Positions 1 to 59,768 of a stretch of DNA of 64,000 nucleotides are shown in pieces. This stretch comes from Psammoneis japonica (taxonomy: Eukaryota). How positions within the stretch are numbered: position 1 is the first letter of the stretch; each line of letters starts with the position of its first letter. The notes beneath the pieces were generated by a model. The model was given only the letters and a program-made list of their open reading frames with translations. It did no database searches and had not been told where the DNA came from. Both the position numbers and the translations under genes were made by a program. Where the stretch lies: NCBI GenBank assembly GCA_008632985.1, contig QPGO01000020.1, forward strand, positions 496,001-560,000, written 5' to 3'.

Positions 1-690
1 TTCTGGATGTCAAAACCTGCCACTGATCTGGAGATTGAAGTGTCAATGAAAGATGACGAGGACAAGGCATTGAATCCTCTAACATCAAAAGAGGCACCAG
101 CAGAAGATGGGTGCGGAGCTCCGCCTGAAATGAGATCCGCAGAAATGCAAGGCAACCTGCAAAATTGGAACCCAGACATGCAGCTCAAAATGAATGAAAA
201 AGTGATGGGAGGTGACGCATTCAAGGAATTGGATTCCAAGACAGAAGCAACACTTGAGGTTGAAAAAGAGCCGGTGGCCAAGTCATCTGAGGAGAAAGGG
301 CCAGGCGCCGAGGGTGCGATGTGGAGTCTCAATGCGGAGCCAGCAGTGACCCAACCCATGGAGAAGGAGACCACCGAGATGAATGAAAATGTTGATGAAG
401 AAGATTCCCCGGAAGTTGTTGGGAAGTGGACAGGCAGAACACCACTTGCCCCACGACCATGTGTGGCTGGTGTGGCCGCCTCCAGACTGCTTGGGAGATT
501 TTGACCCTAAATGTTGCGCAAGGATGACGGGTGACAGTGAGCTGTTCCCCACAGTGCTTGGCATGGCACCCCCAGCACTGTCGAGTGCACACGGAAGAAG
601 TGAATGTGTCGTTGTGCCAGCCTGTGAGGCCGCTCCTCAACTCATGGGGACAGAGAATGACACCCAGCTGACATTTTCGATCAAGAGTTC
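1..690. other. TpA-depleted block (end of a decayed repeat/TE-like region) containing a Tyr-free acidic ORF 7..504
   Basis: Very few TA dinucleotides up to ~690, then normal TA use; ORF 7..504 has no Tyr and no recognisable domain. Confidence 0.5.
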
Positions 691-1040
691 ATTTCCTTGT
701 TACGCTGAGTGGTGTTCATTGTAGAGAAGAGCTCAAAAGTAGATACTATCCATTATGAATAAATCCAACATTAGTCTCGGCCTCTGATTCTTTCTCCTGC
801 TAGGGAGCCCACGAGGAACCGAATGCAAACGTGCCAGCCTCCCGTCAAAACTTGAAAAGCGTGACTGACTGTCGGCTTTTCTACAGGCTTCTCCAGTACA
901 GTTTCTACGCATTCACGAATGGTGTCAGCCTCAGCAACGAGCGACCGTCTCACTCACCACAAACCACACAAAAATCCAACACTGTTGAATTGAAACACCC
1001 TGTACCAATCTCTATCTGTCTTGATACTATTACCCCCATT

Positions 1041-12354: not shown

Positions 12355-13375
12355 CGTGCATCTTTGGAAGTCGGTTGAGGTGAAATGACGATTGCCTGTC
12401 AAAGCAGTCCGTGGTTCCGACGGAGATGCACCACGATTGCCAGCAAACTCGCTTCTTGCGTGTGCGCTGAATGCTTGTAAACGTCCAATACGGCAGTGAC
12501 CCGGTGCCAACCAACGCACTTTTTAGTGCAACGGTTGTTTGAGCAGGAACTCTGTGAGGGCCAGCCTCTGCTTTCTTTTTGAATGCACGCTGAACGCCTG
12601 TGGACGTCGTGGACTAAGACGGTGTGCTTGACACCCCGAAGGGCAGCCTTTTTCGTGAAGGTTGTAAGGTGGTTCAGACCGCTTGAGTTGCTCATTGAGC
12701 ATCTCACATCTGATCCCCCATAGGTTTAATACTCCTGTGGGTCGCCGGCCCGTTTTGTCAGCTGTGTTCTCCACGTCCCACAGCGTTTGAAGATCTGTTT
12801 GTTTCGTTTGCGATTGTGACCGTCTCGCTGAGTTATACTTTATAACTCACACTCTTTTTTCAGAATTGATTTCTATCATTTTGAGCAGACGATACGAAAG
12901 GAGAAATGCTACAAGGAGAAGACATGCATTTACAGTCGCATCTAAAGTGTTGAGACGCATCGGCAAGGGTTTATTCTCGAGAGTCGGGTGTACATAAAGG
13001 GTTTTCCTCGGGCTCCTTCAAGTATCTGTCATTCGAGTCACTCGGTTTGAGACGTGATAGTGAAAGCACATCTGCCTCCAATATTTACGTAATCCACACC
13101 GTGGATGGCGTTCTTACGCAACAGGCGCGTCTCTGGCCCTTGGCGGTTGACGTGTTCCCCGAGAAGCATCCCTCTCGCGACACTCCTACGGTACAAATGA
13201 CGCGACTCCCTGAGCCTTGGTGGTTACTTTGTTTGAAACTAGGATGCCGGTAGACAATCGAGAATGCCGCCCAGTCGCTCCATCCAATTTATGTAAAAGC
13301 GGTTCTGCGTTGCGAGCAGTCGACCCGAGTGCGTTCTCCAAGACGCAGCAGTCACTTCAATCAATTTCAACAAGC
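12355..13375 (+). repeat. Dispersed repeat copy A (homologous to ~22385-23570), less decayed
   Basis: Collinear blocks gattgcctgtcaaagcag, ttgccagcaaactcgctt, gggcagcctttttc, gtttgaagatctg, cattttgagcaga, tgcctccaat, tctccaagac. Confidence 0.85.
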
Positions 13376-13894
13376 ACTCGCAGTTTCAAGCCCGCCGCCC
13401 CAAGCCCATTCACCGTGTTCGCCCTTCTTCTTGTGGCTCCTTACATAAAACAGATCGTTTTCCGAAATTGCAGAGGGCTGCGTCAGGGCTGCACCATTTG
13501 CTGAGTGCTGAAAGAAGGCACAACGAAGGAGGCGATGCGGTCGACGCAGCGAAGCACCACCTCCCTCGTTTGAGTCATCAACGCGCTTTGGGTCCACCCA
13601 AATGGCCCTGAAACAATCCCTCATGCAGCAACTTGATGGGCAAGCAATGTCACATTCCCTTTTTGCACTTCGGACACTGGACCGATTAAAATGCATCTTT
13701 TAGCTGGCAAGCATCTCAAACGGTTTAACGCACTCGCAAGAATCCCAATTCTAGGTGCCACAGAGAGAAGTGGCATTGACACCACATGCCAGCAAAGGCT
13801 TTGGCTCTTTCATGGTCTGAAACAAGAAAAAATGCCGTGTTGTGAGAGACATGTGCAAACAGTCGCCAGAAAGCAAACGAGTCAGATTGAGTTC

Positions 13895-15882
13895 CTAACT
13901 GCGCACCTGGAATGCGGTGATCCATGCCTGCTCCCATGGCGTTCTGGTCAAACATCCTCTGCTCATCCTCTTCGCTCATCTCAATCGGAATTTCCGTCAC
14001 CAGGCACTCAGTCGTGAGAACCAATCCAGCGACACTGGCCGAGTTTTCAATGGCGTTAACAGCCACCTTGGCTGGGTCAATGACACCTCTCTCCATCAAG
14101 TCGCAGCATTCCAGGGTGGCAGCATCCCAGCCCCAACCAAACTTCAAGAACAGAGGACAACGAGAAGATTCCGTGAGGATGCATGACAACAACACTGGGG
14201 CAGCAGGATGCAAAGACAACTTGCTCCCTTTTCTTCCATGAGAGCTTGAATCTTGGCTAGAACCACGGCTCCTTCGACACCTACATTCTCTGCAACTTGC
14301 ATGGCAGGAGCCGACAATGCCTTGATGAGAATGGGAGCACCTTGCTTTTCATCGTCGCTGTCCATTGCTTCAATGCTCTTGTCACCCACAACGTTTTGGG
14401 GATGCACAAGGCACGATCCTCCGCCGGGTAAAATTCCCATTTCTCAGCACTGTCGACCAAGTTGAGGGCATCCTCGTGACGGAGCTTCTTGTCCTTCAGC
14501 TTGGTTTCGGTGGCGGCGCCCACTTTGATTCGTGCAATGCCACCGCCTAAGGCAGCGATGCGCTCTGGACACTTTTCACGATCAAAATCCGTGTCCACCA
14601 CTTCGGAATCCTTTCGAAGCTGCAGGACATTGCATTGATGGATTCTTCCTGTTTGCTGTCCGCAACAATCGCAGTGAGTTCCGTGGCTGTTCCCAACACG
14701 TCAATTGTGACAGAGTCAAGCGTGACGCCAACTTCTTCTGCAACAAAGGTGGCACCTGTGGCGAACGCAATGTCTTGTGTGTGCTCCCTTGCCTGTTTCT
14801 TAATCTGGGAGCCTCAATGGCAACCACGTCCAACACTCCTTGCATCTTGTTGACATTGAGAGCAGAGAGGGCTTCACCCGTTACGTCTTTCGCAACATCA
14901 AGATGGGGTCCTTGGTCTTGACCAATTGTTCCAAGAGGGGGACGACGTCAAGGACATTTTCAATCTTGGAGTCCGTGGCCAAGGCACGAGGATTGACCAA
15001 TTCTGCTGCTTGACGTTGTGGGCTTAAAGTGCACGGAGAAATGTGTCCGCTGTCAATGGTGAGGCCCTCAGTGAATTCAATTTCGTCCACCAGAGTCTGA
15101 GACTCTTCCACCACGGTAGATCCATCCTCTCCAACCTTGTCAGCAGCCTGAGCAATGATGCGACCCATGTCAACCGATCCAGAAGCAATGGTGACAATGT
15201 TCCTCAAATCGCTGATGCCAGTCACATCCTTCACAGAGGTTGCAATTCACGTGAAAAAGATGAATTGGGCATGCAGCACAAACACGATGCGGCACACAGT
15301 CGAAAGACGAGTGATGTTAAAATGCAAGAATGGCACAGTGCACAAAAGTTGCCGTGCCTGTGCCAACTCCTTGATTTCGTCCGAAACGATCCTCGTTTCC
15401 TTGCGAACACCTGTGTTGAGTGCGACGAGGTTGACTCCTGACGTGGCAGATCTCATGCCGTCATTGACAATGGCCTGTGTCATGATTGTCGATGTGGTGG
15501 TTTCATCGCCCGCCTTGCTGTCACTCTTGGATGCCACTTCTTGAGTGAGTCTCGCTCCAACATTCTGCCCGTGGTCTTTTAAGGGAAATCTCTCGCGCAA
15601 TCGTGACGCCATTGTTGACAACTTCGGGAGCTCCACAGTTGCAATCCAACACCACGTTGCGACCCTTGGGACCGAGAGTCACCTTGACAGCATTGGCAAC
15701 GGCGTCAATGCCGTCGACGAGGGCTTTGTGCGATTCTTCACGAAAGGTCACCTTCTTGACGTGAAGCGAGGTGTCAAAGGCAACAGGAGGTGTTTTGATG
15801 CGCGAGAGACAAACGCACTTGTGGACGACGACTGTGTCCGCACAATGGCCACCAACAGCGAAACGGCAATGGAAAATCTCAT
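13895..15882 (-). pseudogene. cpn60: Plastid-targeted chaperonin 60 (GroEL family) pseudogene with two introns, TpA-depleted
   Basis: Presequence [14 protein letters not shown]...[75 protein letters not shown]; many frameshifts. Confidence 0.93.
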
Positions 15883-16354
15883 GGTGTGATGGTCGTAAAG
15901 CGTGGCTTTCAACACACACTTAAACACCTGTTGTTTCACACAAGCATCGCGCAAAGTCAAATGCCGACTGTCAGCCAGTCACGTGCGTCCCTCAACGCAT
16001 TTTGGTTTGAAGCTCGTGGACAGCGGAAGACAAGTTGAGAAGCTCTAGATCCTTTTCCTTCCAGTTCGCCAGTCCCCACTGACAAGGAGCTTCTCCTTCT
16101 CGACGCGCCATGGTGTCATTCATGCAGAGTTCCACCGACTTGACAGAATCATCGAGATCGGTCGTCTCAACTGCAACACCAAGATTTGTCGAGACAAGGC
16201 TGAAACGGACGCCAAGAGGTCCCTCGGTTTGTTTGGGAGTGGGTGGAGGAGTGGGACCTGGCACAGGCCGCGGGGTCGGAATGGTGGGAGAAGCTGGTTT
16301 GGGTGTTAGACTACGTGGTCCAGTGCTTTATGATGAATTTAACTTTCGGCGAAG

Positions 16355-16520
16355 ACTGCACTTGTCAATTGATGTTTTGGCGATTTTGTCGCACGTACGA
16401 TCGGATGCGACAAATTTTGTCGGACGTGCGACAAATTTTGTCGCATCCGACAAACCCCGACAAACCCCGACAATGTACGACAAACGCCGACAAGAGCCGA
16501 CAAACGCCGACAGACGGACG
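16355..16520 (+). repeat. Left terminal/subterminal inverted repeat with palindromes (cgacaaattttgtcg) and ~10-bp cgacaaa repeats
   Basis: Read directly; reverse complement of ~22000-22220. Confidence 0.75.
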
Positions 16521-16778
16521 TTTGCGACACTGTCTCCACGAGATTCGCCCAGAGTGCGGCAGAGAGCTAGAGGCCCCAGCTGCCTGCTGATAAAAGGCAC
16601 AGCACAGCAGCGCACACCGGCACATTCCGCTCCACTGTGTAGAAGCGTGCGATGTTGTCCCGGTGTTGACGAGAGTGTGACATTCGGGGACATGGAACAA
16701 CAATGCAAAATTTCGAAATCAAAAAAATCTCATGCTCACACACTGCATGCAAATCAATCGTCTCGCATCTTCTGTTGT

Positions 16779-17741
16779 CCAAACATCACAGAGCTCCGAT
16801 CCGTGCTCCATTTGGTGCTGGACAGCAACGCAAACCGCTTCAAATGCCCAGGGATGCTTCCAAACTGCATGACGGAATCTGTCTCGTAACACTGCAAAGT
16901 TTTTAAGCCGTCCATTGAATGACTCATGCCGACAGCGAGCTCGGCTCTTGAAGTTCTTTAGCATCGGGGGATCAATGGAGCTTGGCAGCGCAATCTTCCT
17001 GCCCGAGCACCCCCCGTCAGCAATGGCACACTTCCCAACTGGGATTTTGTCTCGGAGCGCTTGGTTGAGGTTCCCGAAGGAGCTCTTCGCGAAGTCGCCT
17101 GTCGTGCTCATCCTCCTCACCCGTGAAAATTGTGAGATCATTTTTTCCACCTCTGAAGGGACCGGCAATCCACACACAGTTTGAAGAGTGGGTGTGGATT
17201 CCAATCTCGCCTTGAGAGCAGGACCATTGAATTTGTGAGACCAGTGCCGTCTGTCTTTGTTGAGCCGCGGATGCTTTTTCTCCCAAATCGGAAAGTCGGT
17301 CGTGTCCTCCGTAATTGCAAGCATTTCCGCATCTGGATCATCAATTGACGGAAGCCAAACGATTTTTTGAGCTTTCAATGCTGCGATTCGGCGAATCCAT
17401 TTCCACACATGCTCTCCCCGGGAGTGTCGCTCACAAACTCCAAAGCGCTTTGAAGCAATCTTGGCATTCTTTGGGCAAGTGAAAAGAAAGCAGTGCCCGA
17501 TCATAAACATCTTGAAGCCATTCTCTGACACCTCTTGTTCCTCGGGTCTTGCTGCATTGTTGTTTGTGCTGCATGGATCACGCCAGACATTGGCCACAAC
17601 ATCTGGGTTAGAGCCATGATGAGCCTTGAAGATTTCTCGGCTGGTCTTCAAATGCTTGGCGTCGGTGATGCTGTTGTCAAAATCGATGCGGAGGTGCTTC
17701 ATTCCACGCGTGAGCACATCACTCGCAGTGAGATTGTTCAT
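16779..17741 (-). pseudogene. Harbinger/ISL2EU-type DDE transposase, frameshifted and hypermutated
   Basis: DTTDFPIWE, WSHKFNGPALK, CVWIAGPFRGGKNDLTIF (other frame), IADGGC, RARCRHESFNGRLKNF..L.DRFRH, AFEAVCV.VQHQME. Confidence 0.88.
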
Positions 17742-18354
17742 TTTTGGTTGGAGATCCAGTTGGATGACATTGTGAGATGATTCAAGTGTGCTCCTTGTGT
17801 GATCTGGCAAAATCATCGCTGAAGAGGACTCGCTTGTGTGCATGTGCTTGGACTCGCCAGTGCACTTGCATGCGTTAAAACGGCAGAGCTTCACTTTTTT
17901 GCTTTCAAACTTTCGTGGGAAGTCCAACAATGTCCCAACTCGCATTCCCACAATTGGGAAAAAAGCATCATGATGGATTGTCAGGAGGGTGATCGAATTA
18001 AAGTGTCAAAAGGGAAGTTTGAGAACAAGCTCGCAACCTGCACCAAGGTTTGTCCGCAGGCGTTGCCACTCAGGTTCGATGACAGGTCGTCACCTGACGA
18101 CACGTTCTCAAGCGTCAGCTCGTTCATTTGGACGAGAATGAAGAGCTCCAGGGTCTTCTCGATCAAATCAAGCAGCTTGGCATTTATGACAGAGGGGAAC
18201 AATTCAAACAGGACGTTACACACATTTGTTTGGGCGACAGACGACGACGAGCGACAAGGAAGAGCAAGGACTGGATGCGAGGAGTGACAAGGAAGAACGA
18301 GGAATGTGTGAGGAAGAACAAGGAACAGGAGCAGGTGATAAAGAGTGGTGTGTT

Positions 18355-18470
18355 CTGCTGCTGCTGCTGCTGCCAGCACTGCTGCCACTTGCGAGCACTC
18401 AAGGAACAGAACTGCTGCCACCACTGCTGCAACTGCCTGCTGCCACTGCCACTGCTGCCACCACTGCTTG
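18355..18470 (+). repeat. Mixed CTG/CCA trinucleotide tract (inferred ex-(CTA)n)
   Basis: ctgctgctgctgctgccagcactgctgcca...ctgctgccaccactgctg...ctgccactgccactgctgccaccactg. Confidence 0.8.
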
Positions 18471-18504
18471 CGGCACGGTGCAATGCCAATCAAGAAGCAC
18501 CGGG

Positions 18505-19658
18505 CTAAAACTGAACATTCGCGTTGGAGACCTGAATGTTGCTGGCACCCGCGGCCTTGGTGCCTCCTTCTTCGGCAATCAACCACCACTTGACGCATCC
18601 AGTAATGTCCTGCTTGATGCCTGCAGTTGCCTCTGTCCATTTAAGAAAGACTTCCTGGCCCCTGACGTTGGGTTTCGTCTGAGAAGATGCGTTGACCAGC
18701 TTGGTGCCACGTGGGAAAACCAACATCCAGCATTCACAGGGGTCTTGAGCGGATGCCTTGAGATTCGCATTGAGGTGAGCCTCCTTCGCGACGTCCTTTT
18801 GTGGCGGTGGTGGCAGAGTCTGCTTTTTGTTGGTTCCATCGTTCATCTTGTCATGAATTTGTTCAATGTCCTTGAGCTCAGAGCTCACAGCCGGCCCCTT
18901 GATGCATGCAACACGGCCATGAACACTCGACGGCACAGAATCCGCTCCTGGAATGAAAGCAACCCACTCGTTTCTGTCGAGAACAGAAACAACACGACGA
19001 ATCTCGAATCCCGACCTGTTGAAGGACTGGTGCGTGATCTTGTCAATGTGGACAACTTGAAAGCCACCGAGCCTGCAGTTGTCGAGACCCACAGGAACCC
19101 AATGGGGGTTTTCCAAAGAACCCAAATCAGTTTGAGCAATGAGGTTATCAACAATGGATGCTGACTTCGAGGGAGTCGTCAACACACGGCTGGCGCGACG
19201 AGGGGTCAAGCCAGCCATGCGCGACACATGAGCCACTCGAGGTGGAGACCACAACACGTCATCGTCGTCGTCATCATCACCCAAGTCCACCAATGAAATG
19301 CTGTCAACCATTTCATGAAGCTTCCTCGACTTTGTCCTCAGCTTTATGGTTGGCCTCCTCGGCCTCCTCGGCCTCCTTCATCAAGTGTTCCTCGAGCCTT
19401 GGAGGGTGTCGGCAGCTGGCTCCACCTCACACTTGTGCAACAGTTCGATGTAGGAGGTGATCTTGGACTTCTTGAAGTTGTCACTTGTTTCTGAAACCAA
19501 CGGTGTTTCTTCACATTGCCGTCCATTCATCCTCCTTTTCCGTAGAAACGAGGGTTCGAATCACAAATGTCCTTGAGTTTGGCTGCAAAGAGCCCGCCAT
19601 CGTGCTCAAGGTCCTGGACCAACTGCGCCCATTTCACGTTTTTCTTGACTTCCTCCAT
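18505..19658 (-). pseudogene. Frameshifted accessory ORF inside the transposon, function unknown
   Basis: Protein-like segments in consecutive frames (MEEVKKNVKWAQLVQDLE...; 268-aa ORF 18505..19311 with no Tyr). Confidence 0.45.
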
Positions 19659-20088
19659 GATTTTACATGAGCTGAGTGAAAGTGTAACATGACAAAAGAC
19701 CGTTGTGGCGTTTTGGGATTGATGTCGTTGGGTTTTTGAACTTAATGTCGTTGGGTTTTTGAACTGCGCAAAGAGAGAAATCATTCGCGGAAGAAAAATT
19801 CCAAGAATTTGAAGTTTCACTCCAAACGAAATTTGAAATTTTGAAATGTTAAAGTGCCCGTGTGAAGATTCACATTGAAATCATGGAAAGTTCTTAAAAA
19901 CCGACCAGGATTGGATTTGTAAAAATTTCAATGTCGTTGCGTCTGCACTGTCAGATTTGAATTGACCCCCACAGCGATCGACCGCAGCTGGGGTCTGCTA
20001 GCGAGAGCTGCTCCGTCCCAATCCGTTGCGACTCATGACTCACTCACAATGTCGTGCGCATGGCACAGGGCCTAATTTGTCTGCAACG

Positions 20089-20722
20089 ATGCCGAAACCA
20101 AAGAATTCTGAGTGTGTTGACTGGACAACTAGTGAGGCAAAGATGGTGCTATATGCCGATTTGCAGAGTGGCAGGTTGTCACTGAACGAGAGCGAAGTGA
20201 CGGCCGAAGAAGCATGGGAGCGTACAGAAACCATGCTGCATTCAAAGGCATCGTCATCTTTGAACAATTCAACCTGCGCCTGCGAGATCATCGTAAACAA
20301 ATTCTGTTGAAGAGAGAGAAATCGAATGATCAAATGAAGGCATTGATCCATGATCGACGGCTCTGTCCAAGGAAGGACGTGAACAACCGTGGCGAGCCGG
20401 TGTGGGACATTTCACCAGCAAAAGAACTCCTCAAACAAGACCTCTTGCAGAAGAAGCACTTGCACATGACACCATCCGAGCTTCGCGCCTCAAGACCAGA
20501 ATTCAAATCTTCTGCAAGACAAAGTTCAAGGAGCACATCCATCAAGCAGTCCGCAAGGAGAAATTCATAAACTGCCTGGAGCAAGTCCGCAAGAAGAAGG
20601 AGGAGAAGGCAAAACAAGACAAAGAGAAAGCAATGCAAGCGAGGATAGAGCTGCAGAGAAAGAAGGAAGAAGCTCGAGCAAAAGAGGAAGCAGAAAGAAA
20701 CGGCAAACGCAGATGCAACTAA
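20089..20722 (+). pseudogene. Frameshifted accessory ORF inside the transposon with an internal two-fold W..S.AK..L..DL motif
   Basis: DWTTSEAKMVLYADLQSG... and VWDISPAKELLKQDLLQK..MTPSELRASRPEF..FKEHIHQAVRKEKF across three frames. Confidence 0.5.
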
Positions 20723-20910: not shown

Positions 20911-21457
20911 GTCAAACTAAAAAGAGCACTTGCAGACAAGGCAGAAGCAGAGATTCTACAACAGTTAAGAAGTGGAGATTCTACAATGCCAAATTGTCAG
21001 TTCTGCTGCCAGACAAACAGTTGCAGTGCCGAAGACGACAAGTTGCCAACGGGAACGCCGTGCCCCCCCCCCTGGCTCTTTCAAGACAATTGTGACACCA
21101 TTGCTGCATCTCATTTCCCTCAAATGCAGCAACAGCACCACATCCCAAAGGCACCATAGAGTGTGCGAAGTGCAATGCTTTTGTCTTGGACAAACAAAAT
21201 GTCGCCAGAAACCACAGGAGGGAAGCACCCGTCACTGTCCCCATGAGAGTCGCAAGTTTCGAGGTGGAAAATCATTCCACCATCGCCCATCATAGTCTCC
21301 CCATCCCAGTCCATGCAAGGAAGAGCAGAGAGAATTCTGGGACTGCTGGCGAGCAAATCACCAAGCGAACATGCAATCAACACCACTGATGGGCAAACCA
21401 ACTCGGGAAATGACATGGGATCCCCAAACCGCACGTTCAATTCGTCCAACAGAAGTG

Positions 21458-21916
21458 TCAAACAGGAGCTGCGCAGCTCAACTGCTGAGCTGATGATTGA
21501 GCTTGGAACCCAATCTTCAAATGTGGTGTCACCGTCAGCGGCACGCATTGATAGAAATGGCAGAAATGCTCGGGATGGAGGAACGGCAGTCCGTTGTCGA
21601 TGAGCTGGTTAAATTCGCCAGTGTTGGCATGGAAACTCCGCATGAGGTCACACATGTCTTCAAGCAAGGAAAGGACCTCCATCCATCGCTTGATCATCAG
21701 TTTTTTTCCCACGCCAATGTTGTCTCGGAGATGCGGTCGGGTGCTTGCAAGGCGTTTCCACGCAACATGTGTTTCTCGACCAAGGCACCAGCGCACAGCC
21801 TCGAAACGCCCCAGACTCTTGACATCAAGGAATGTCAAGATGTGATCTTGCAGCATGCTGTTGTGGATGAAATGTTGGAGACCGCCGAGAGCGGCATGAT
21901 CGTCGCTTTGCATCAT
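21458..21916 (-). pseudogene. Possible F-box-like gene fragment carried within the transposon
   Basis: LQDHILTFLDVKSLGRFEAV....W resembles the F-box pattern (I.sFL....L.r...V.k.W). Confidence 0.35.
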
Positions 21917-21999
21917 CGTGCAAAAGAGACACAGTGTCAACGGAGACGTTGGCGGTTGCTGTGGCGTGTGCAGTGGGGGGGGTGGGTGTTTCGTTCGTG

Positions 22000-22220
22000 A
22001 GTCGTCGTGTCGTGACGTGACGTGACGTGTCGTGACGTGTCGTGTCGTGTCTTGTCGTGTCGTGTCGTGTCGTGTCTTGTCGTGTCTTGTCGTGTCTTGT
22101 CGGATGCGACAAAAATTTGTCGTATCCGACAAATTTTGTCGGATGAATTTTCGTCGATGACATCGATCGCCAAATTCTGTCAATTGCCCCACTTGTTGAA
22201 ACGACATCGCCAAAGTGCAG
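22000..22220 (-). repeat. Right terminal/subterminal inverted repeat: (gtcgt/gacgt/gtctt)n pentamer array plus cgacaaattttgtcg palindromes
   Basis: Read directly; mirrors 16355-16520. Confidence 0.75.
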
Positions 22221-22384
22221 GTTGGTTGTTAATGACATTGATCATTTTGTGACTTAGTTGAACAATGTTTCTGTCCCGTTTATCGCCAACCCGGACATTT
22301 TGTCGCAATTCGCGTCTTTTCGTGACAAATCATCAATTCATTTAAGAAATTGTCGCCAAATGCGACAAAATGCCGTGTGTCCCT

Positions 22385-23570
22385 GCGCATGTCTTTGGAA
22401 GCTGCCGCTGGTTGTTTGCCAGAGGTGAAATGCTGATGTGATGATTGCCTGTCAAAGCAGCCCGTGGCTCCGTCGGGGACACGCCACAATGTTGCCAGCA
22501 AACTCGCTTTGTGCATGTGCATGGAGTGCTTTTGCAGGTCCAACCATGGAGTGGCATCATGCATCACAGACATCGCCGCCCAGCCAACGCACTTTTTGAG
22601 TGCTTGTGCTGTTTGGGTGCTCTGGAGAGCCCCCCAGCTGCTGCATTTTTTGAAATGCATGCTGAGCACCTGCTGACATCCAAGACCAAGATGGTGTGCA
22701 TGACAGAGGGCAGCCTTTTTCATGAAGGGTTGTGAGGCAGCTCAGATCGCCACTTCAGTTGCTCTTTGAGCACTCTTTGAGCACTCTCTTTGAGCACCTT
22801 GCACACTCACACATCTGAGCTCCCAAGGCCTTCAATGAGCTGCATTCTCCATGCCCCACAGTGTTTGAAGATCTGCTTTGTTGCACTGGGGTTGCTGTGA
22901 TGGCCATCTTCTTGCTGAGTTGCCACACTTGACAGCTCGCGCTTTTTTCAGAGTTGACTTCCATTGTCATTTTGAGCAGATGCAAGACATGAACAGAAAA
23001 ATGCAACAGAGAGAAGCCATGATTCTGCAGTCATGTGTGCAGTTGCTGGTGATGTTGACAGGGCAGCAGCACTCTCACAGCTCTTGCCAATGTTGTGTGC
23101 AAAAAAGTGCAAAAAATGCCGAGTCAGATCAGCAAGGGTTTTGAGGCATGATGCAAAAAAAAAGCACGTGTGCCTCCAATCTTCATCCAGTCCAAACCAA
23201 AGCAGCAGACAATGATTTTGCACAACAGGCGTGTTTCTGCATTCAGTGTGATCAACCAGGCTTCTCTTCAAAGCTGCTCCAAGCATCTGACTCTCAGTGG
23301 AAGTGAGTCAACCTGCAAACTTCTTGTGATGCTCCTGCTCAAATGGCACACCGTGAGCTGTTTTTGGTTGCTCCACTTGATGTGCTTGCCAAGGAACATG
23401 AGAGTGGCCAGCAAATGCTCTTTTGCACAACTCAAGGGATTCTTCAAACTCTGATGGCTGGCCCATTGTATTAAAGTGATGGTGGCCGGCACACTGCTTT
23501 GCAGCAGTTTGACCCAAGAAGACAGCACTCTCCAAGACACGGCAGCCACTGCAGCCAATTGCAACACTTG
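22385..23570 (+). repeat. Dispersed repeat copy B (homologous to ~12355-13375), heavily depleted of both TpA and CpG
   Basis: Collinear shared blocks with copy A. Confidence 0.85.
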
Positions 23571-24668
23571 TGTTCACAGAGCTGCTGCCACAAGCCTGTG
23601 ACAACAACATGTGTGAGCCAAACAGTGAGCATTTCATGATTCCCCATGTGAGAGCCACTTTCTGCAAAGAATCACCTGCAGACAAGGGGCACAGCTTGTG
23701 CTCTCATGTCCTCACATGAAGCTGCTGGCTGTTTGGCACTTGTGTGACTGCCACAATTGTGCTCAAGAACCTGAGTCTGGACATGGAGATCAGGTGCTCT
23801 TGTCAATGACATGCAGCTGGCAACTCAGCCAGCTCTGCCAATGTGCACAGAACATCTGAGACAGCTGTTTTCAAATGTCTTCATCCAGCGACATTGCACG
23901 ATGGGCACTTCCCCAAAACTCCAGAGAAGGGTGGTGCCAACGCTGCTTCATTCAGAGGGTCCCAATCTTGCCTCTTTGTTGGCTTGTTGTGGTCATGGAC
24001 ATTTGACACCAGACATCCTCTTTGGACCATTGAAAGCTTTCTGACATGTGAGTTTGCTGCTTCGCTGTTCTTGTGGGCACACATGCGCCAGGCTCGTCAA
24101 GCTGTGACTTCTCCTGTCAACATTGTGGGTTTCTGCAAAATGGCACACAAAGGCAGCACATGATGAAAGAAGTGAGTTTTCTGTGCATCTCATCTTTGAT
24201 GAGTTGCTCAACATTCAACCTTGTTTTTTCTTCGTCTTCCTCATTTTCATTTTCATCTTCTCTTCCTTTTCTCAGCTTGGGCCACCTTGATTGACAGACA
24301 CTCTCCAGATGACCAGCTCACTCTTGCGACATAAATCCATCTTTAGAAAATGATGGCGACGGACAGTGGTGACCTTTCGACGGAATGCCGCTCTGCGGGC
24401 ATTCAACAGCTTCAGAGCAATGATGCAATGATGTCGTTGCTTTGCATGGCCTCGGAATTTTTTGTTTTTGATTTTTTTTCTTGTGGTACTGTGTGGTGTC
24501 TTTGGAAATCATTTTAAAGCTACGTCTCCGTAGGAGACATAATCGTATTCAATCTGTGTTGAAATGTACTTACGCCTATTTTACGTGCTTCTATACCATG
24601 AAGCCGGAATTGCGGGTTCCACGTTCTCTCAGAAATTTGTCAAGCAGCCAGCAGAACGGAGCCGCACC

Positions 24669-26529: not shown

Positions 26530-28290
26530 GCTCGTGCGCAAGAAATTGACGGCGTCTCCAAATCGAACTACGACTGACCAGGATTCGCACAGCAACAGCT
26601 GCCACTGGAGCCAGTGGAGCTGGCCAACGCAGCGGACGCAAAAAGCTGTCCGCGCGCGACACACACCTCTCAGTTCGGCTCCAACAATGTCTGTGACCTT
26701 GGCAACTCTCAGGCTAAAGGAGTGCACTCCATGCTTGCCTTGGTCAGGTCCTGTTACAATGGCAGTCCAGAGGAAAGCAAAGCTGCTTGCAAAGAATTGG
26801 GAGAACTTCTCTGTTCTTGCCATCACGGTGCGGCAAAGAAAGGGTGCTGTCTTTGCATTGGAAGAGAAAAACTTTTCACTTTGTTCAACAGCAACAAGGA
26901 AAACACCCATCTGATCAAGTGCTTGACTCTGCTCCTCAAAAGCTCAAAAGGTGGAGGGCAAAGGTCACCCATGCCTGCAGAGGCAGCACCATGAAGCCAT
27001 GAAAAGCAAGTGTTGCCAAAGCAAGCAATCCCCCCAGAAGCCACTTGCTGTTTTTTGAGCACATCTTGGCTGGAATGTTGCACTTTGTTCCCAACACTTG
27101 ACCTGCTTCAAAACACAGCAATCCTGCCAGCGAGAGAATCAAATTTTGATTTTTTGCAAGAGGGGCCAACAAGAGACATTGAAGAGTGTTTTTGTGGGGC
27201 AGAGGGTCACAGCAGCATCTTGAGTTGTTTTTGGGTGTGTGCAATTATCTGGCAAAGGCCAAGTCTGCCAATCCCAAAATGTGCCAACTTTGCAAATTGA
27301 GCACTGGACAGATGACAAGCAATGGTGTGTTCTTGACAAAGGTCTTCCAAAAACTGGCGCACTTTGCATGGTGCAGCTCATTTGTTTTTTTGACAAGTGT
27401 GCATCAAATGTGCTCAACAGCAGACCTGCACACTTGCAGTGCCCTTGGCCAGCTCAAAAGTGCCAGGCAGGCAACCAGATGACTGCCTGACAAACAACCA
27501 TGCAAACAATGAAAGCAGTGCCCAATGAAAGAAGAGTCAACATGTATGGGGAGCTTTTTGGCTTTCTTTTGAAAACTTAAATCTCACCTCATTGTCATCA
27601 TGGCGCGGATGGTTGGGTCTCACATGCGCTGTTGCTCTTGTGGCAGTGCTGGTGCACTGACAAACCATGTTTTGTGTGGAGGGAGTTTCTGAATTTTTCC
27701 AAATCAGTGATTTGGATGGCATGTGGTCTGACCCTGGCTGGTGCAGTTGCTGGCAGAGTGCGGCAATGCACGGTGTGAACAGCAACCTTGCAATGTGGAG
27801 ACACCCAGCTGCGTGGCTGCGTGCACAGCATGAGTTGCTGCTCTGCAGGACATCAAGCTTGCAAGATGGTGACTCTCTCACAATCTTGCAAATTGACAAG
27901 GTTGAGGAGGTTGTCATTTGTTTTTTCATTGTCACGAGCCAGTCTGGCAGTGTTGTGTTTCTTTGTTTTTGGGGCGTTGTCGGCGATGCTCGGCTTTGGG
28001 CACATTTGCTTGGGGGGCAACTCCAACACCCCGCACATTTTTCTAGCAGAATTTTTGCACTTTTAGAGCCACAGGCAGAGATGTTGCCTCACACAAAAAA
28101 CATTGCCATTTGCTTTGGCTCACTGCTATTTTTAGAGTGTTGGCTTCAACCGCCGCGCTGATCAGACCGCGCCCGCGCCCGCGCGCTGCCCGCATCACCG
28201 CCATGACGCTCGATGCCCGCAACCGCAACCCGCAACGCACAGCCCATGGTACTTTCTCCCCTTTCTCTCATCACCCACCACCAGCACTCT
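26530..28290. other. TpA-depleted decayed insertion between the two RING-like paralogs
   Basis: TA nearly absent, CpG low in the core, CpG-rich ends; no identifiable protein. Confidence 0.65.
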
Positions 28291-29672: not shown

Positions 29673-32600
29673 TAATAACATGCGAACACACTTGTTCTGT
29701 GCCGACTAAAAGTTACATTTAATCAGATACACTCTTCTCTCTTACCGTAGAGAGCAAGTGCAATAGTCGCTAGCAGGGTCCACTCGCTGGACTAGTTCTG
29801 CTGGAGCTCCAGGGAGATCCGTTCGTTTACCATGCAACGGACAGTTGTGATGGTTCGAGGAATGCGGCGTTTCGTTTCGTTTTCAGCCAGGAGGGTCCGC
29901 AAAGTTTGGAGATGAGGCGAGGATGGGGCAGACATACAAATAATGGAGGTGCGGCACTCGCTCTAATTAGATCGGGAACCTGTCCAAATTGAAACAGACG
30001 CAAGGACAAAAGTCCGGTTTCAACGGATTTCCGTTGACCACAATGCTTTTTCACTGGCCTTGAATGTTGCATTCATGTTGAGCAATGAAAACTTGCTCTC
30101 TTTGTGGCATGGTGTTTGCACAAAATGTGCAAGTCCACAACTTGCATTGCCAACATTCATCGTTGAACATGCACATTTCCCAGTTGCTCGCAACACGCCC
30201 AAACTGCAGCAGCACAAAGTGGTGCATGCCGCCGGGTGCCGCGATGTCTCAATGCGCCTTTTGCCGATTTTCCATTTTTGGCACACCTTTTGCCAATTTT
30301 TGGTTTTCTTGCTTCCTTTTTGATGACAAGCGCGCAAGTCATCCCACAAGCTTGGCCCCGCTGCGCGCCTGCAGGTTTGCGGGTTTGTCAAAAGTGCCCC
30401 AAAAAAATTGGCTGTGTGCCGCTGCCTCGACTCTCAGCAGCACTTTCGCCAGCCTTTTGCTGATTTTGCTGCCTGGGCAATGCTCCAACACACCCCGCAA
30501 GCTTTTTCCTTGCAGATCGCTTGCTTGGTTGCGCCCTGGTTGAGTGCCGAGCACTGAGTGGGTGAGCCACGCAACACCCCGCTGAACATGCACAGCACTC
30601 ACCTCTTGCTTTTCTTTGATCTGCGCCCATTGTGCTGCAGAAAACTCTGGAGCATGGAGCAGCTTCAGCGGCAGTCTGCAATCTGCTGCTGCTGGGAAGA
30701 GCAGCGCTGAGCCAAGACCGCTCTTCCGCGAGTGGCCAACCTGCCGCTTTTGGGAAGAGCAGCATTGCTGGGTGGTGAGCGCCAGCAACAAGCACAGCTG
30801 CGCTGCCACAAGCAGGTGGGGTGAGAACACCTGGCAGCTGAGTGGGCAGCACAGCCCTTTTTGGCATGCATCAAAAGACTTGCTCTGCACTCCAAACTCT
30901 TGGCCACATTCGCCCCCATTTCCAGCGCTGGCCTCTCTGCTTGCTGCATCTTTTCTGGGGTTTGCACTGCTCTGCACAGGCTGATGTGGAGTGCACTTGC
31001 TCTGGAGCAGATGGGTGGGGAAAGCAAGCTCTGCTTTGTTGTCATTTGGCCAGGTGCACCCTGCTGGCAACGGGGAAGGCATCCAAGTGTTTGTCTGCTG
31101 ACACCGCGCAGACGCTCTTGCTTGCCTGAGCAAACTTCCACTGCTGCTTGTTGAGTCCCGTCCCTTGGCAATGCTCAGCATGACATGAAAAGATTTGTCC
31201 ACACCGCATTTTCAACATCTCCTTTTCTCACCTTTTGCTCATCATTCTTTCTTCTTGCTCCAGAAGACACAGCATTTTGAAAAGGTTGGTGGCTGGCACA
31301 TGGAGCACAGCCGGGTGTGTGCACTTGCCAGGAAGCAGCTTGCCCACAAAGGGAAGGGCTGCAGCTGGCTCTTGGGGCAGGGGCAGAGCTCTGCACCATT
31401 TGTGCTGTTGGCATTGGAGGCATCTCCCGTCATCGTCAAAGCTGTGGCGCTCCTTGCTGAGCAACCCCGGTCTGTTGAGTTGAGCCTCTCAACTTTTTTT
31501 CAAGGCTTTGTTTGCTTCTTTCATTTTTGGCACAGTTTTGGCAATGTCCCCGGCTTGCTTGAGCTCCTTTCAACATGCCATGAAATGGGGTGCATTGTTG
31601 TGCATCACATCAATTTTTGGTCTCTTGCCATCAAAAATTTGACATTTCACCCCGCTGAATGCGTGGACAGCTGTCCGCTCATTCTGCTTGTTGGCTGTTG
31701 TCACTTTGACAGCTGGCGCAGCTCCAACAGAAAAAAATGATTTCTGTGGGTGGCTCAACCAGCTTGATGATGCCTCTTTTCTGATTGAGTTTTTTTGCAA
31801 TCCAGAAGGCTGGTGCAGGTGACTCTTGGTGCTTGGGTGCAGACTTTGGTGCCGCCAACTTTGTGTGCATCAACTGTCCTCAACACTTTGTCTTCTGGGC
31901 TGCTCTCTCAGGCAATGCCCTTGATGTCAAACTCCTCCCAACCATTTTTGAAGTCTGCAGTTGTCTCCCACTTTGAAGGTGGTGCTTCAAGCAGCTCTTC
32001 CCATGACACACTGACCTTCATTTCTTGCTCAACTTCCCAGCCACTGCAGCAGTTGGCACATTTTGTGGGCAGTCTGAAAACATGAACACTCATGTCATGG
32101 CTCCAATGGTGAACAAATTTATGCAACAAAGCAGCAACAAACCTGGGAGAGTGGCTGAAGGCCCAGAGCAGCTGTCTCACTTTTTGACAACATCCTTCAA
32201 GTGCAGTGGCTCCATGAAGGCACTTGAAAAGCGGGGCTCAGTGTGAGTCAGTGCCAACCTGAACACAGCATGACATGGAAGTGTGCCCCTTTTGTGTGTG
32301 ACAAAGCACCGCCTTGTGCAGGTTCCGTGCTTTCTGTTGAAACAGTGGCTTGCTGATCTTTGCATCAAGCACATTTGCAAGAAGATTTGCTGGCTTCATG
32401 AGCTCTCTCTCCAGCTCTTTTGGGCCCAGAACAATGCAACGGACCTGCGTTCAAAAAGAGTTCCAGGGCAATGTGTTGATTTTGTCTTTGCTGCAGGCAC
32501 TCTTTTGCAGTGCTTCCTCAACAACCTCAGTGATGTTCCCGCATGGGACAAAGAAAACATCAGATGATCGAGCCATGAACACTCCAAATGCACCATGGTT

Positions 32601-32699
32601 TTTTGACAGAACCTCCCTGAGCCAAGTGAGTGTGTGCCCAATGTCTTGTTTTGTGTGGAGACCATGCTGCAGCTGTGTTGGCTCATCTTCAACATTTGT

Positions 32700-34195
32700 G
32701 TCACACTTGTCCCCATCATCTCCATCTTGATTCTCAGCATCATGGGCTGCAGCTGGTGGGGAGCATCTTTGTCATCATTGCCATCATCATCTTGATCTGA
32801 TGCTCTCTCCTGTGCTCTTCTCATGTGTGCAGTGAACTCTGCCAGCACTTGTTGCTGTTTGGGTGCAAAGTGCAAGTTTCTGACTTCCCGCGTGACCCCT
32901 TTTGTGCACCATCTGCAATGGTGTCCTCAGTGCTTTGGTTTGACATTTTTGGCACAACTGCTGCAGGTTGCTTGGCTGTGTCCATTCAAACTTTGACAGC
33001 AGCATGATTGAAAAATGCCACGTGCAGATGCCGGCTCTGCTGCACCCAGAATTTGTTGGTTGTGCACAGCAACAATGAGTCATTTTCCTTTGGTTCCTTC
33101 ACATCTGGTGGTGGAGTGGCTCTTGGGTCCACAAAATGCATGGCAGTCATTTTCAAGCTCATTTTCAAGCATGACATCATTTGAGTGTGCAAGTCAGTGG
33201 CAGCGCGGCAAAACAGTGCTCCTCATCAACAGCAGCTTGCTCCAATCAAACAGTGTCACAGTCAGCTGTGCATGTTCACTCCCATCCAAAAGGAGCCATG
33301 GCTGTGTCATGAAGACCAGCTGTTGTTCTCTCCACAACACCTTGCTCCCTTTCAATCTGAGCCAGCTTCCTTTGTCTGCATCAACCTTGGAAGCCACTCT
33401 TGTCTTTGGCATTTGCACACACTCAGCCTTGTCATCTCCATCTTCATTCTTGATGTCAGGTGGCAGGGCTGCAGTGGGTGGAACATCTTCATCATCGTTG
33501 CTGTCATCTTGATTGGACACTCTCTCCTGCACTCTTCTTGCATGGCAGCACATGGTGAAATCTGCTGGTGTTTGTTGCTTTTCAGGTGCAGCTCAATCAA
33601 AAGTTTCTGGCTTCCCACACAACATCTTTGGCCCCATCTGCAACAACCACATCCTCAATGCTTTGACTCAACATTTTTGGCACAACAGCTGCAGGCCACT
33701 CAACTGCATTGATTCAAACTTTGATGGCAGAGTGCAGTCAATGGAAATGCCACAAGGAGCTGCTGACTCTGCTGCACCCAGAAAAGCAGCCTCTGCAGCT
33801 GCCACACAGAGACTTGTTGGCTGTGTGCAGCAAGAACAATGAGTCATTTTCCTTCAGCTCCTTTGTGTCTGGCAGTGGAATGGCTCTTGGATCCACAAAA
33901 TGTGCAAAAGCCATTTTCAAGCATGACATCATTTGAGCGCATGAGTCAATGGCAGCATGGCAACAGCTCTCATCATCAATGGTGGCTTGCCTCCAATCAA
34001 ACAGTTGCAGTTGGTTGTCTTTGTTTGCTCCACATCCAAAAAGAGCCTTGGCTGTGTCATGAAGACCAGCTGCTGCCCTCTCCTCCACAACACCTTGCTC
34101 CTTGACCATGTGCTGCAGGCATGTTGCATTGGCCAACAATGCTCCAGTCTGAGCCAGCTTCCTTTTGTCTGCATCAATCTTGGAAGCTGCTTTCT
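32700..34195 (+). repeat. Diverged tandem duplication (~32700-33410 and ~33420-34195)
   Basis: Shared acatttttggcacaac, ctctgctgcacccagaa, aacaatgagtcattttcctt, ttttcaagcatgacatcatttgag, ggctgtgtcatgaagaccagctg, tctgagccagcttcc. Confidence 0.88.
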
Positions 34196-35908
34196 TCATG
34201 AGTGCAGACTCCCCCAAGAGAAGCTTGAGTTCATCAAGCAATGGCAACGCAAAAATGCTGTTTTCCAAATCTGGTGCAGTCACTTGAGCAGTGGGGGGGG
34301 GGCACCCTTGGCCCTGACAGTCCACTTGGCATCAATTGACAATGCGCCCCAGTTGTTCTTGGCACATTTGATGAGGATGTCCTTGGAGGTGGCATCTGCA
34401 ACTTGCTCGGCAGAGAACGTGATCGGCAGCTTGAGAATGTCAAGACATGCAACAAATTTGAAACCTGTTCAAGGCTTCCTTGTTGGAGCCCATTTCACCT
34501 TGCTCTTTGTCAGCTGATGCCACACCACCCAAGAAAGCATGCTCCATTTCTTTTTCTGTTTCTGGAATGAAGGAATGGAGAATGGGCTCCTTGCCATTGC
34601 TGTTGTCTCCTTTGCAAAATGAGCACTCATCACAGCACATCTGTCTGCTGTGACAACATTTGGGCCTTCAAAGCCATGCACTTGACTCTGTTGGTCAAGG
34701 CCATGCAGGCTGTCCCCCACTTTCAATGGGGTTGTCCCCACAACAAGTCAGAGCATCAGCATCTGTCCAAACTCATTCATTGCCAAGTGCAGACCAACAA
34801 AACCTCTTGCACTCTCAGCCAGGAGAGCGACCTTTCCAGTTTTGACAAAATGGTCCCCAGACAGGAATGGGCCACCATTTGTTGTCATTTTGTGGTGACA
34901 GTGAGAAATGCTGGATTCAATTTCTAATGTTGTTGCTTCCAATGGACAGATCACAGATGGCACCTGCATTTCCACCCACTCATCATCAAAAGTCAAAATG
35001 CAAAGCTCAGTTTTTGATGTGACTCTCTTTCCCAACCAAGTTGTGAGCAAAACTGGCATGTCCTTGCCATGTCTTTGCTTTCACAGCATGTGTTGCTTGC
35101 ATCTCTCAGTCAGTGACTTGACAAGCCCAAACCTGCTCATGTGCCACATGACAGCTTAGATCTCATCTTGTCAGCAAGCACCCATTCTTTGATGGCACCT
35201 TCAGGGGCAATTTTGTGTCCATTTTGCTGCCACCAATTTTGAGCATGCTCAGGTGATTGTGACAAGAATGATGCAGAGTCATGACCACAGAATGTGCGGC
35301 TCTCTCTGTTGCTTGTGCAGCGGCTCTCCTTCTGCACTTGTGTGCACATGCACATGCCCAACACTGGCTTCATTTGGATGCTCCCCACATGCATGCCTGG
35401 CACAATCTGAGCATCCAAGATGGCTGACACACTCAGTTTCTCCAGGATGAAAAAGGCAGCAGGGCCTGCATTCTGGCCAAAACAGTGACCGCCAACAACC
35501 CCCCAGCCCAAAAAACATGATGGGTGGCAGCTCTGCAAAATCCTCACAAGAGAGTGGCATGGTGTGCTCTTTTTCCACATTTTCGTGTCCTGGACCAAAA
35601 TGAAAGTCATTTGCTGTGTCAGAAGACAAGCCAACCATTGAAGAGCAAAACATCTCTGATGCCAGCTTCCACATGGCTCATGTTTGCCATTCAGCTTGAA
35701 CCCAACATGCTTTTTGAGATGCTCTGACAACTTGTTGCACACTTTCAAGGTGTGTGTGCCATCTTTCACAAAAGGTCATTCCTGTCTTGTTGCGAAGCCT
35801 TTGCTGTTCCATTGGAAGCACAAGTTTCTGCTGCCCTGTTTCCATGGTGACTCCTGGCAGCAGCTGCAGCGCCAATGGCAAAACTGTTCTCCTCTGCTGT
35901 TTTCTTTG

Positions 35909-35973
35909 CTGCACTCATCATTCTTGCCACTGTGTTTTCTGCACTCATCATTCTTGCCACTGTGTTTTCTGCA
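35909..35973 (+). repeat. Perfect 30-bp tandem duplication (ctgcactcatcattcttgccactgtgtttt x2)
   Basis: Read directly. Confidence 0.9.
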
Positions 35974-45308: not shown

Positions 45309-46099
45309 GTATGTTTTGCGTTCAATGCTTGGAATTCCCTGTCTAGCTAGATATCGGGCAGTTCAAGCTCGGCTCATTTGGGAAGTCTAGGTAGCTAGCC
45401 GCTCTGGTCGCCAGCTAGAGAGAGGGTAGCCCAATTGCCGGCGAGAGCTGCTACAGTAGGCTGGTGGAAAGAGCTAAAAGTTCTGTTGTACGAGCTCGTC
45501 GAATTCTTTTGCAAGAAAGCGCTCAACGCAGTCAAAGGGTATACTTCCAGTATTGGATCTAAGAAAGACCTTTTGACGTTGCTGGCTAATGTTAATATTG
45601 GAGAAGTTGTTTGTGCCGCTGACAAGATCGCTGGTATTGTGTTCTATCTTCTCTTCGCGTTGGAACCAAGAGAGCACCAGCAAGAAACATTGGCGGAGAA
45701 GAGCTTGAGGTACCAGGGGTTTCACGGTGTTGGCGGCGGTGGAAGTCCATCTTATCCCAACGATGCGCCAGTTCCAATTCGCAAAAGATCTAAACTCCAG
45801 CGGCTATTGCTAAATTGAAGAGCAGCGAAAATGACAAATCGAAGAAATGATGTGACGATATAACGGAAACTGCAAATCATTAGACCTTACAGGGGACTGT
45901 TGCCCGACAACTGCTGGCGTCATGCTAGCTAAGATAAAAGAGAATACCAGCATCTCATCTCTCTATTGTTTATAGTCCGTGTCAAATCTTTCAATTGGTC
46001 AGAGAAACTGCCTCCAGTGGAGCACAGATTGCTCACTACAACACACACTTTTTCACATTTACCCTCTCTTTCACATCATGCTAAGAATGAATCATCCTG

Positions 46100-59760: not shown

Positions 59761-59768
59761 TCACCCCG

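Follow-up and report, generated by a model that had tools for sequence, protein, structure and literature searches.

How does one dinucleotide come to be nearly erased from parts of a contig, and do the few copies that survive tell us what erased the rest? The question is raised by a stretch of 64,000 nucleotides of the diatom Psammoneis japonica (GenBank assembly GCA_008632985.1, contig QPGO01000020.1, positions 496,001 to 560,000, forward strand), hereafter the window, and in particular by its positions 13681-15960, where a decayed gene for a chaperonin of the cpn60/GroEL type has lost most of its TA dinucleotides (TpA). A preliminary description, made from the letters alone, had noticed that the remaining TpA tend to lie in TTAA and had suggested a mutator with a preference for certain sequence contexts. 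We find that this excess of TTAA is real, and we consider it highly probable that it is what remains after the action of a regional, DNA-level process that converts TpA to TpG or CpA (A:T to G:C), reads the bases flanking each site, and has struck transposon relics together with a silenced cpn60 duplicate.

Surviving TpA are enriched for TTAA beyond chance

A two-state segmentation on TpA density, run across the window with parameters of our own choosing, separated seven TpA-depleted blocks with observed/expected (o/e) TpA ratios of 0.01-0.14 (Table 1) from normal DNA, for which five large blocks of 1.9-12.6 kb with o/e ratios of 0.52-0.61 served as comparison. Within 13681-15960, the counts made by eye in the preliminary description proved exact: the 2280 nt hold 18 TpA, of which 8 are TTAA and 14 contain TAA or TTA. 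By tetramer, the survivors are TTAA (8), CTAG, CTAA and GTAA (2 each), and TTAG, CTAC, TTAC and GTAG (1 each), while ATAN, NTAT and GTAC are absent among the 18. In the non-depleted DNA of the window only 41 of 1296 TpA are TTAA, a share from which that of 13681-15960 differs strongly (Fisher p = 7e-8). The same holds for all depleted blocks taken together (33/163; p = 4e-14) and for the depleted blocks without 13681-15960 (25/145; p = 5e-10). As anticipated in the preliminary description, the make-up of NTAN tetramers in the 64-kb window differs between depleted and normal DNA (10 strand-symmetric classes, chi-square 155, p = 7e-29).

Such a difference could also be an artefact of the baseline, if the coding DNA used for comparison avoids TTAA or if the region was rich in TTAA to begin with, the mutator itself having no flank preference. 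Measured against a first-order Markov expectation, normal blocks do hold too little TTAA (o/e 0.37) and CTAA/TTAG (0.55), with ATAC, GTAC and CTAC over-represented, and the region's TTAA density does exceed that of normal DNA. Because the normal-block baseline is biased in this way, we added dinucleotide-preserving shuffles of the region itself, which gave a mean of 1.55 TTAA and reached the observed 8 in 0 of 2000 cases. The same shuffles yielded a mean of 5.2 sites with a pyrimidine before and a purine after the TpA (YTAR), against 13 observed (0/2000), and a mean of 3.9 sites of the converse type (RTAY), against none observed (P = 0.012). Shuffles of the large depleted blocks deviated in the same direction as the region, and those of normal blocks in the opposite direction. 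Relative to local composition, TTAA is thus enriched about 2-fold window-wide and about 5-fold in 13681-15960. Since, in addition, RTAY sites are almost gone from every depleted block and mutated and surviving sites at the same locus differ in their flanks (both described below), we regard a baseline artefact as very unlikely, and the TTAA excess among survivors as confirmed.

An intact paralogue gives the direction of change

The sequence occupying most of the region is a pseudogene (Table 1) with at least five frame changes; its segments are 73-85% identical to diatom plastid chaperonins, and all named matches are to diatoms. None of six conserved Tyr positions still encodes Tyr, and five of them now encode His (3) or Cys (2). 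The positions of two introns are kept, so the pseudogene arose by duplication at the DNA level, not by retrocopying. In one of the introns the 5' splice site, GCAAGT (14219-14224, minus strand), is the product expected of GTAAGT after TA>CA.

When contigs of coded read runs were aligned to positions 13001-33000 of the window, runs X1 and X2 were both found to hold a second cpn60 sequence, 90-95% alike, from which the pseudogene differs by 1-nt indels at 14445, 14896 and 15581, among other changes. Because the X2 version skips both introns, we take it to be the spliced product of an intact paralogue; run X2 is in this respect like complementary DNA, is not on record as RNA, and its coverage gaps over transposon blocks were not used. 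A cpn60 protein of the same species was absent among the 120 protein matches listed. The best of these, P0010 (80% identical), was rejected in that role, as its differences are not explained by TpA loss.

Differences from the X2 sequence are strongly directional. The window has G where the other copy has A at 40 positions and C where it has T at 38, with 17 and 18 in the reverse sense (78 versus 35), and 24 transversions. The sequence context was read for 40 of 406 difference rows. In 24 of these the window shows TG or CA opposite a TA in the other copy, the rest being CpG>TG/CA (4), A/T>G/C off TpA (4) and other changes (8). Of 28 A/T>G/C differences, therefore, 24 lie on TpA and 4 off it. 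GC-biased gene conversion or drift, which this ratio and the hardly raised GC content of the blocks (0.49-0.52, against 0.48-0.51 in normal blocks) both contradict, was rejected; together with the non-random survivors, the same ratio bears out the earlier suggestion of a context-dependent, enzyme-like loss. Three of the TpA>CpA/TpG differences (14193, 14197 and 14201) fall inside the first intron, and because intron positions are mutated, the change was made on DNA.

The same copy pair relates survival to flanks without recourse to normal blocks. Taking the other copy as ancestor, the 20 TpA that survive in 13303-15960 comprise 13 YTAR and no RTAY, and the 23 mutated sites read there comprise 3 YTAR and 7 RTAY (p = 6e-4 for YTAR, 0.01 for RTAY). 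TTAA accounts for 8 of the 20 survivors versus none of the 23 mutated sites (p = 9e-4), or for 1 of 24 (p = 0.006) if an event in the loose end of a contig, described below, is included.

The comparison also bears on the idea that surviving TpA are mostly new, having arisen by G>A or C>T at TG/CA steps after a burst of mutation. TG and CA are 1.5-2 times enriched in the blocks, and there are a few differences with A in the window and G in the other copy (13092, 15194). Such a source would, however, supply TTAA sparingly: TTGA and TCAA together occur about 155 times per 10 kb, which we estimate at roughly 8% of TG+CA, while TTAA makes up 20% of survivors. None of the 40 difference rows (of 406) lies on a surviving TTAA, and the TTAA at 14056-14059 is probably ancestral, because it encodes the Val-Asn of cpn60. 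We therefore give recent origin very little credence, slightly less than the baseline artefact.

A further concern is that a modified base in silenced DNA might be miscalled in long reads, so that TA is displayed as TG or CA, and blocks without CpG and TpA are indeed where base modification would be expected. X1 contigs, with a word depth of about 50-60, nevertheless reproduce depleted and normal DNA alike with few differences: 2 of 2380 letters differ over the block edge at 29972 (28211-30591), and 4 of 916 within the most extreme block (30938-31853). The TA-bearing paralogue is present in X1 too, as a sequence of its own, and Tyr-free proteins of the kind expected from TpA loss occur in other public data sets (see below). 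A miscall is thus the least credible of the alternatives, and we all but dismiss it.

Flanks on both sides grade the loss

The density of each tetramer in depleted relative to normal blocks forms a graded series: TTAA 0.89 (a proxy that is unreliable as a measure of absolute survival, as discussed below), CTAA/TTAG 0.39, CTAG 0.22, GTAA/TTAC 0.15, ATAA/TTAT 0.14, CTAC/GTAG 0.10, ATAG/CTAT 0.07, GTAC 0.03, ATAT 0.03 and ATAC/GTAT 0.025. RTAY and YTAR sites stand at 412:210 in normal DNA, versus 4:30 in 13303-20567 (p = 2e-10) and 3:36 in 55806-64000 (p = 2e-13), and four smaller blocks go the same way. The order of loss accordingly runs from RTAY through mixed sites to YTAR, with TTAA the slowest to go. 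Position +2 matters as well (pooled p = 3e-8), and because of this the footprint is at least 6 bp: the half-sites kept best are TAAC, TAAA and TAGA, and those kept worst TACC, TACT and TATA. Across all depleted blocks the half-site TACG has a ratio of 1.09, versus 0.20 for TACC and 0.18 for TACT, and a CpG that immediately follows the TpA may hinder the mutator.

TTAA is lost more slowly without being immune. Its density falls from 12.2 per 10 kb in normal DNA to 2.6 in the most depleted blocks, which have also lost CpG, and one loss is seen directly, where the loose end of an X2 contig reads GTTAAC and the window GTTGAC. The target originally proposed, T-A-not-A, therefore caught part of the rule: a 3' A or a 5' T does go with survival, but the rule is wider, extending to the opposition of RTAY and YTAR and to position +2, and the protection ascribed to TTAA is one of rate.

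Not supported is the proposal that an adenine is shielded by a 3' A on its own strand. Where a site has a single protective flank, the mutated adenine was the one followed by A in five cases (13651, 14478, 15462, the codon 17616-17618 and 12665) and the other one at 13371, 13629, 14389, in the codon 17475-17477 and at 12615 and 12931, with two more cases ambiguous. Because the choice between adenines is 5 versus 5-6 events, protection seems to belong to the duplex site rather than to one strand, and the flanks would act on recognition of the duplex TpA, after which either adenine may be hit.

A deaminase of single strands with the target T-A-(not A), for which an adenine's own 3' A is a shield and TTAA is doubly shielded, is the strongest competitor. 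The density ratios are well described by a product of per-strand survivals, f(A).94, f(G).41, f(C).16 and f(T).14, with predicted/observed values of.027/.030 for GTAC,.021/.028 for ATAT,.024/.025 for ATAC and.17/.22 for CTAG. The same additive fit is obtained in CpG-retaining blocks, and at mixed sites flanked by G the predicted adenine changed 5 of 7 times. Yet such an enzyme should place at least 93% of events on the unshielded strand, which is at odds with 5 versus 5-6, and TTAA is nonetheless lost in the extreme blocks. We consider it unlikely, and prefer recognition of the duplex site.

TpA loss is confined to sharply bounded blocks that contain transposon relics and a cpn60 pseudogene

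The depleted blocks are sharply delimited, and TG/CA are enriched in them (o/e about 1.3-2.1 in 1-kb windows). Between two of them lies a 419-nt stretch (20568-20986) that was segmented as normal; with 5 YTAR and no RTAY among its 9 TpA, it should probably be counted as depleted. No convincing terminal repeats that would delimit elements were found at the block ends within the window.

Most of the depleted sequence is unrecognisable, and the remainder consists of transposon relics and the cpn60 pseudogene. A Pfam search of 76 long frames gave only one, weak, RVT_2 match in depleted blocks (Table 1). The clearest relic is an open frame for a PIF/Harbinger transposase without a single Tyr codon, although its homologues contain 2-4% Tyr; columns in which they conserve Tyr here read His, His, Cys, Cys, Arg (CGT) and Ala, that is, His or Cys in 4 of 6. 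The Arg codon CGT (17580-17582, minus strand), at a column that is Tyr in 22 of 40 homologues, requires TA>CG, with both strands changed at one site. A second element is present as a depleted and a non-depleted copy (Table 1). Where the non-depleted copy has 18 TA (aligned stretch 12301-13000), the depleted copy reads TG 7 times, CA 6 times and otherwise 5 times, with no TA left; of the CpG in the non-depleted copy, 21 are TG/CA in the depleted copy and 6 are kept.

The recognisable host genes are all found in normal blocks and comprise adaptin, ribose-5-phosphate isomerase, TRM5/TYW2, an FHA-domain kinase, CXXC proteins and a multicopper oxidase. The neighbouring genes are thus spared by the process. 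TRM5/TYW2 provides a control, as it is present in two inverted copies about 4.8 kb apart that have 39 TpA in common; all of its named matches are to diatoms, with at most 56% identity. Since this pair and the expressed cpn60 paralogue keep their TpA, duplication alone is insufficient to attract the process.

CpG depletion follows a course of its own. Several depleted blocks are poor in CpG too (o/e 0.19-0.29), and the cpn60 region retains it (o/e 0.68 and 0.92 in the 1-kb windows of 14001-16000) at a TpA o/e of about 0.1. We infer that the CpG loss in those blocks is a separate, slower decay of methylated CpG. This loss, too, depends on flanks: in the CpG-lost blocks 26575-28043, 29972-36978 and 46088-48344, GCGC is fully retained (from 27.1 to 24.5 per 10 kb), CCGC/GCGG is largely retained (from 60 to 41 per 10 kb), and TCGA, ACGT and TCGT/ACGA are down to about one tenth. 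CXXC domains read unmethylated CpG; in a normal block, two adjoining frames at 49478-50931 (plus strand) give weak zf-CXXC matches (E = 1e-4 and 7e-4, under the Pfam cut-off).

Other features of the depleted blocks were noted in passing. The most depleted one contains a tandem duplication of about 750 nt (32716-34101, 70% identity) with no TA and almost no CG in either copy. Summed contig word depth in run X1 rises to 1325 at 16336-17002 and to 3054 at 21672-22338, from about 50-75 nearby. Both stretches contain about 100 nt that match in inverted orientation (16405-16503 / 22144-22052), a 50-nt palindrome lies at 16401-16450, and the two stretches may represent a small high-copy element.

Erasure of TpA removes TAA and TAG stops along with Tyr codons, and dead transposons therefore keep long open frames, which gene callers turn into Tyr-free 'proteins'. 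The 428-codon Harbinger frame is one case. Among the 150 best Harbinger-related representatives, three are Tyr-free (P0210 and P0314 from JGI, P0269 from ENA), and a fourth such protein, P0169, comes from ENA; all carry His or Cys at conserved Tyr columns. Further copies with TpA damage thus exist in environmental data, called as proteins. A microbial-mat contig beside a Harbinger gene (L013, positions 1-500) has 6 TpA, 2 CpG and 108 TG+CA, which resembles the depleted state.

Table 1 Positions of blocks, surviving TTAA sites and recognisable sequences in the 64-kb window
Feature	Positions	Strand	Remarks
Depleted block	1..700		TpA o/e 0.05, CpG o/e 0.46
Depleted block	13303..20567		TpA o/e 0.14, CpG o/e 0.82; RTAY 4, YTAR 30
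Depleted block	20987..24486		TpA o/e 0.06, CpG o/e 0.57
Block poor in TpA and CpG	26575..28043		TpA o/e 0.05, CpG o/e 0.29
Most extreme block	29972..36978		5 TpA in 7007 nt (o/e 0.01), CpG o/e 0.22
Block poor in TpA and CpG	46088..48344		TpA o/e 0.03, CpG o/e 0.19
Depleted block	55806..64000		TpA o/e 0.14, CpG o/e 0.64; RTAY 3, YTAR 36
Surviving TTAA	13686..13689		Tetramer count
Surviving TTAA	13725..13728		Tetramer count
Surviving TTAA	14056..14059		cpn60 codons GTT AAC (Val-Asn; Ile-Asn in aligned homologue)
Surviving TTAA	14800..14803		Tetramer count
Surviving TTAA	15024..15027		Tetramer count
Surviving TTAA	15317..15320		Within intron
Surviving TTAA	15579..15582		Tetramer count
Surviving TTAA	15920..15923		Tetramer count
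cpn60/GroEL-type pseudogene	13923..15826	-	Pfam Cpn60_TCP1 on three fragments; tblastn
Retained intron	14142..14224	-	Protein gap; contig joint 14141>14225; 5' splice site GCAAGT
Second retained intron, limits approximate	15228..15356	-	Protein gap; contig joint 15227>15357
PIF/Harbinger (DDE_Tnp_4) transposase relic	16722..18005	-	428-codon open frame; homologues carry DDE_Tnp_4
Copia-type reverse transcriptase relic	63014..64000	+	Weak RVT_2 match, under Pfam cut-off
Depleted copy of element	22439..23032		Non-depleted partner at 12386-12937
Non-depleted copy of element	12386..12937		Alignment partner of 22439-23032
Control TRM5/TYW2 gene duplicate	37683..38913		Inverted; 85.5% identical to 43746-45059; TpA kept
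Control TRM5/TYW2 duplicate partner	43746..45059		About 4.8 kb apart; 39 TpA common to both copies

Comparison with known systems

Among enzymes that convert adenine, ADARs form an animal family and prefer a 3' G. Hyper-editing by ADAR resembles the present process in changing A to G next to a 5' U/T. Here, though, a 3' G is intermediate and 3' C or T is favoured, and introns are both kept and mutated, so that RNA hyper-editing of the ADAR type was rejected. The natural target of TadA/ADAT2 is U-A-C-G in the tRNA anticodon loop, and its 5' T and 3' C agree with the most lost sites, TACC and TACT being among the most depleted half-sites. Differences are that a 3' T is as good as a 3' C, that TACG is well retained, and that no strand-specific protection was seen. 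Of the two contexts to which the preliminary description had pointed, UAC for TadA and UAG for ADAR, the favoured 3' C/T places the process nearer the former, and there is no ADAR-like preference for 3' G. Decay of methylated CpG likewise produces TpG/CpA in transposon blocks, but it acts on another dinucleotide and more slowly, and the cpn60 region keeps CpG where TpA has gone.

Repeat-induced point mutation (RIP), known from Neurospora and other fungi, is similar in acting on DNA, on repeats and mobile DNA, with a dinucleotide preference, sparing genes and affecting introns. It fails on chemistry, because RIP changes C to T, mainly at CpA, and so raises TpA (10.64898/2026.01.13.699255), whereas here the direction is TA>TG/CA and TpA is driven down; fungal RIP was rejected for this reason. 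RIP mutates both duplicates; here the cpn60 duplicate is mutated, its paralogue keeps TA, and the 1.3-kb TRM5/TYW2 pair is untouched. We infer that the process is more likely aimed by position or chromatin state than by a RIP-like search for homologous copies.

The closest counterpart is found in the chlorarachniophyte Bigelowiella natans. According to the main text of a preprint by Mettrop et al., two integrated viral regions mutate about 1000x faster than the rest of the genome in mutation-accumulation lines, the elevated rate being switched on in some lines only, 230 of the 231 de novo changes in them are A>G or T>C, all of them on TpA, and 324 coding sequences poor in TpA show an excess of DDE endonuclease and reverse transcriptase domains; the agent proposed there, and not shown, is an ADAT2-like adenine deaminase (10.64898/2026.01.13.699255). 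Both systems change A>G/T>C on TpA, lose TpA while gaining CpA and TpG, and affect foreign or mobile DNA in clusters or blocks, leaving the rest of the genome untouched. Of the features reported for B. natans, we found the A>G/T>C bias, the focus on TpA, the TpA-poor and TG/CA-rich clusters and the transposon targets in the diatom window. The hosts differ, one belonging to Rhizaria and the other being a diatom, and in B. natans the rate was measured in living lines, whereas the diatom window displays only an end state. That state is much further advanced, with a TpA o/e of 0.01-0.14 versus 0.45 given for the nucleocytoplasmic large DNA virus region of B. natans, and in contrast to B. natans it includes a duplicated host gene and several CpG-poor blocks. 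The main text of the preprint makes no mention of context, flanking, trinucleotide, tetranucleotide, TTAA or diatom (10.64898/2026.01.13.699255), and our literature searches on diatoms and on A-to-G repeat mutation returned nothing on TpA-depleted repeats in diatoms. The mutator is therefore of a kind described once, in another lineage, and the flank rule is absent from the main text of that description.

Discussion

The agent is probably an enzyme, and the likeliest candidate would be a DNA-acting adenine deaminase, as proposed for B. natans, which would convert A to inosine, read as G. The primary lesion could instead sit on the thymine of TpA, oxidised or otherwise modified and then misread or misrepaired to C. 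The sequence by itself does not separate A>G from T>C on the opposite strand, and a flank effect at the level of the site would suit any enzyme that reads the duplex. 5-Hydroxymethyluracil, for example, occurs in dinoflagellates. However, the literature matches listed on such bases are all from dinoflagellates, with no diatom evidence among them, and the chemistry leading from T to C is less direct than that leading from A to inosine, which makes a thymine lesion improbable, if less so than the baseline and new-TpA explanations. We thus retain adenine deamination as the preferred chemistry.

Several observations weigh against this account or limit it. The 6.4-fold enrichment of TTAA over normal DNA is overstated, because coding-dense normal blocks avoid TTAA. 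In addition, the cpn60 region has 2.9x the TTAA per kb of normal DNA (8 in 2.28 kb versus 12.2 per 10 kb), and the coding baseline and this TTAA-rich region together make the absolute TTAA survival of 0.89 unreliable. Additive rates per flank describe the density ratios well; this suits a strand-wise target and clashes with the even choice between adenines, where numbers are small, and gains in product tetramers are noisy and give opposite answers in CpG-retaining and CpG-lost blocks. At the cpn60 locus the paralogue copy is assumed to be ancestral, and survival per class is not computable there because context covers 40 of 406 difference rows. Run X1 comes from the same sample as X2 and X3, and its independence from the assembly is not established. 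Among 77 Harbinger-related loci in metagenomes, none is depleted over its full length (the lowest o/e being 0.37), so the depleted state is not general for that family.

Looking beyond the window, it is conceivable, and we put it forward tentatively, that an adenine-editing defence acting at duplex TpA, aimed by chromatin and with a footprint of at least 6 bp, is common to diatoms and chlorarachniophytes and may be old within the stramenopile, alveolate and rhizarian (SAR) lineage. If so, host gene duplicates that land among transposons would be destroyed along with them, and the flank spectrum would serve as a fingerprint for finding the enzyme. The flank hierarchy is in itself a testable specificity, which can be compared with the 231 de novo mutations of B. 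natans and used in screening deaminases. In the literature searched, hypermutation restricted to TpA has so far been known from one 2026 preprint on one rhizarian alga; the end state preserved in this diatom suggests that the process occurs widely in a major group of marine primary producers.

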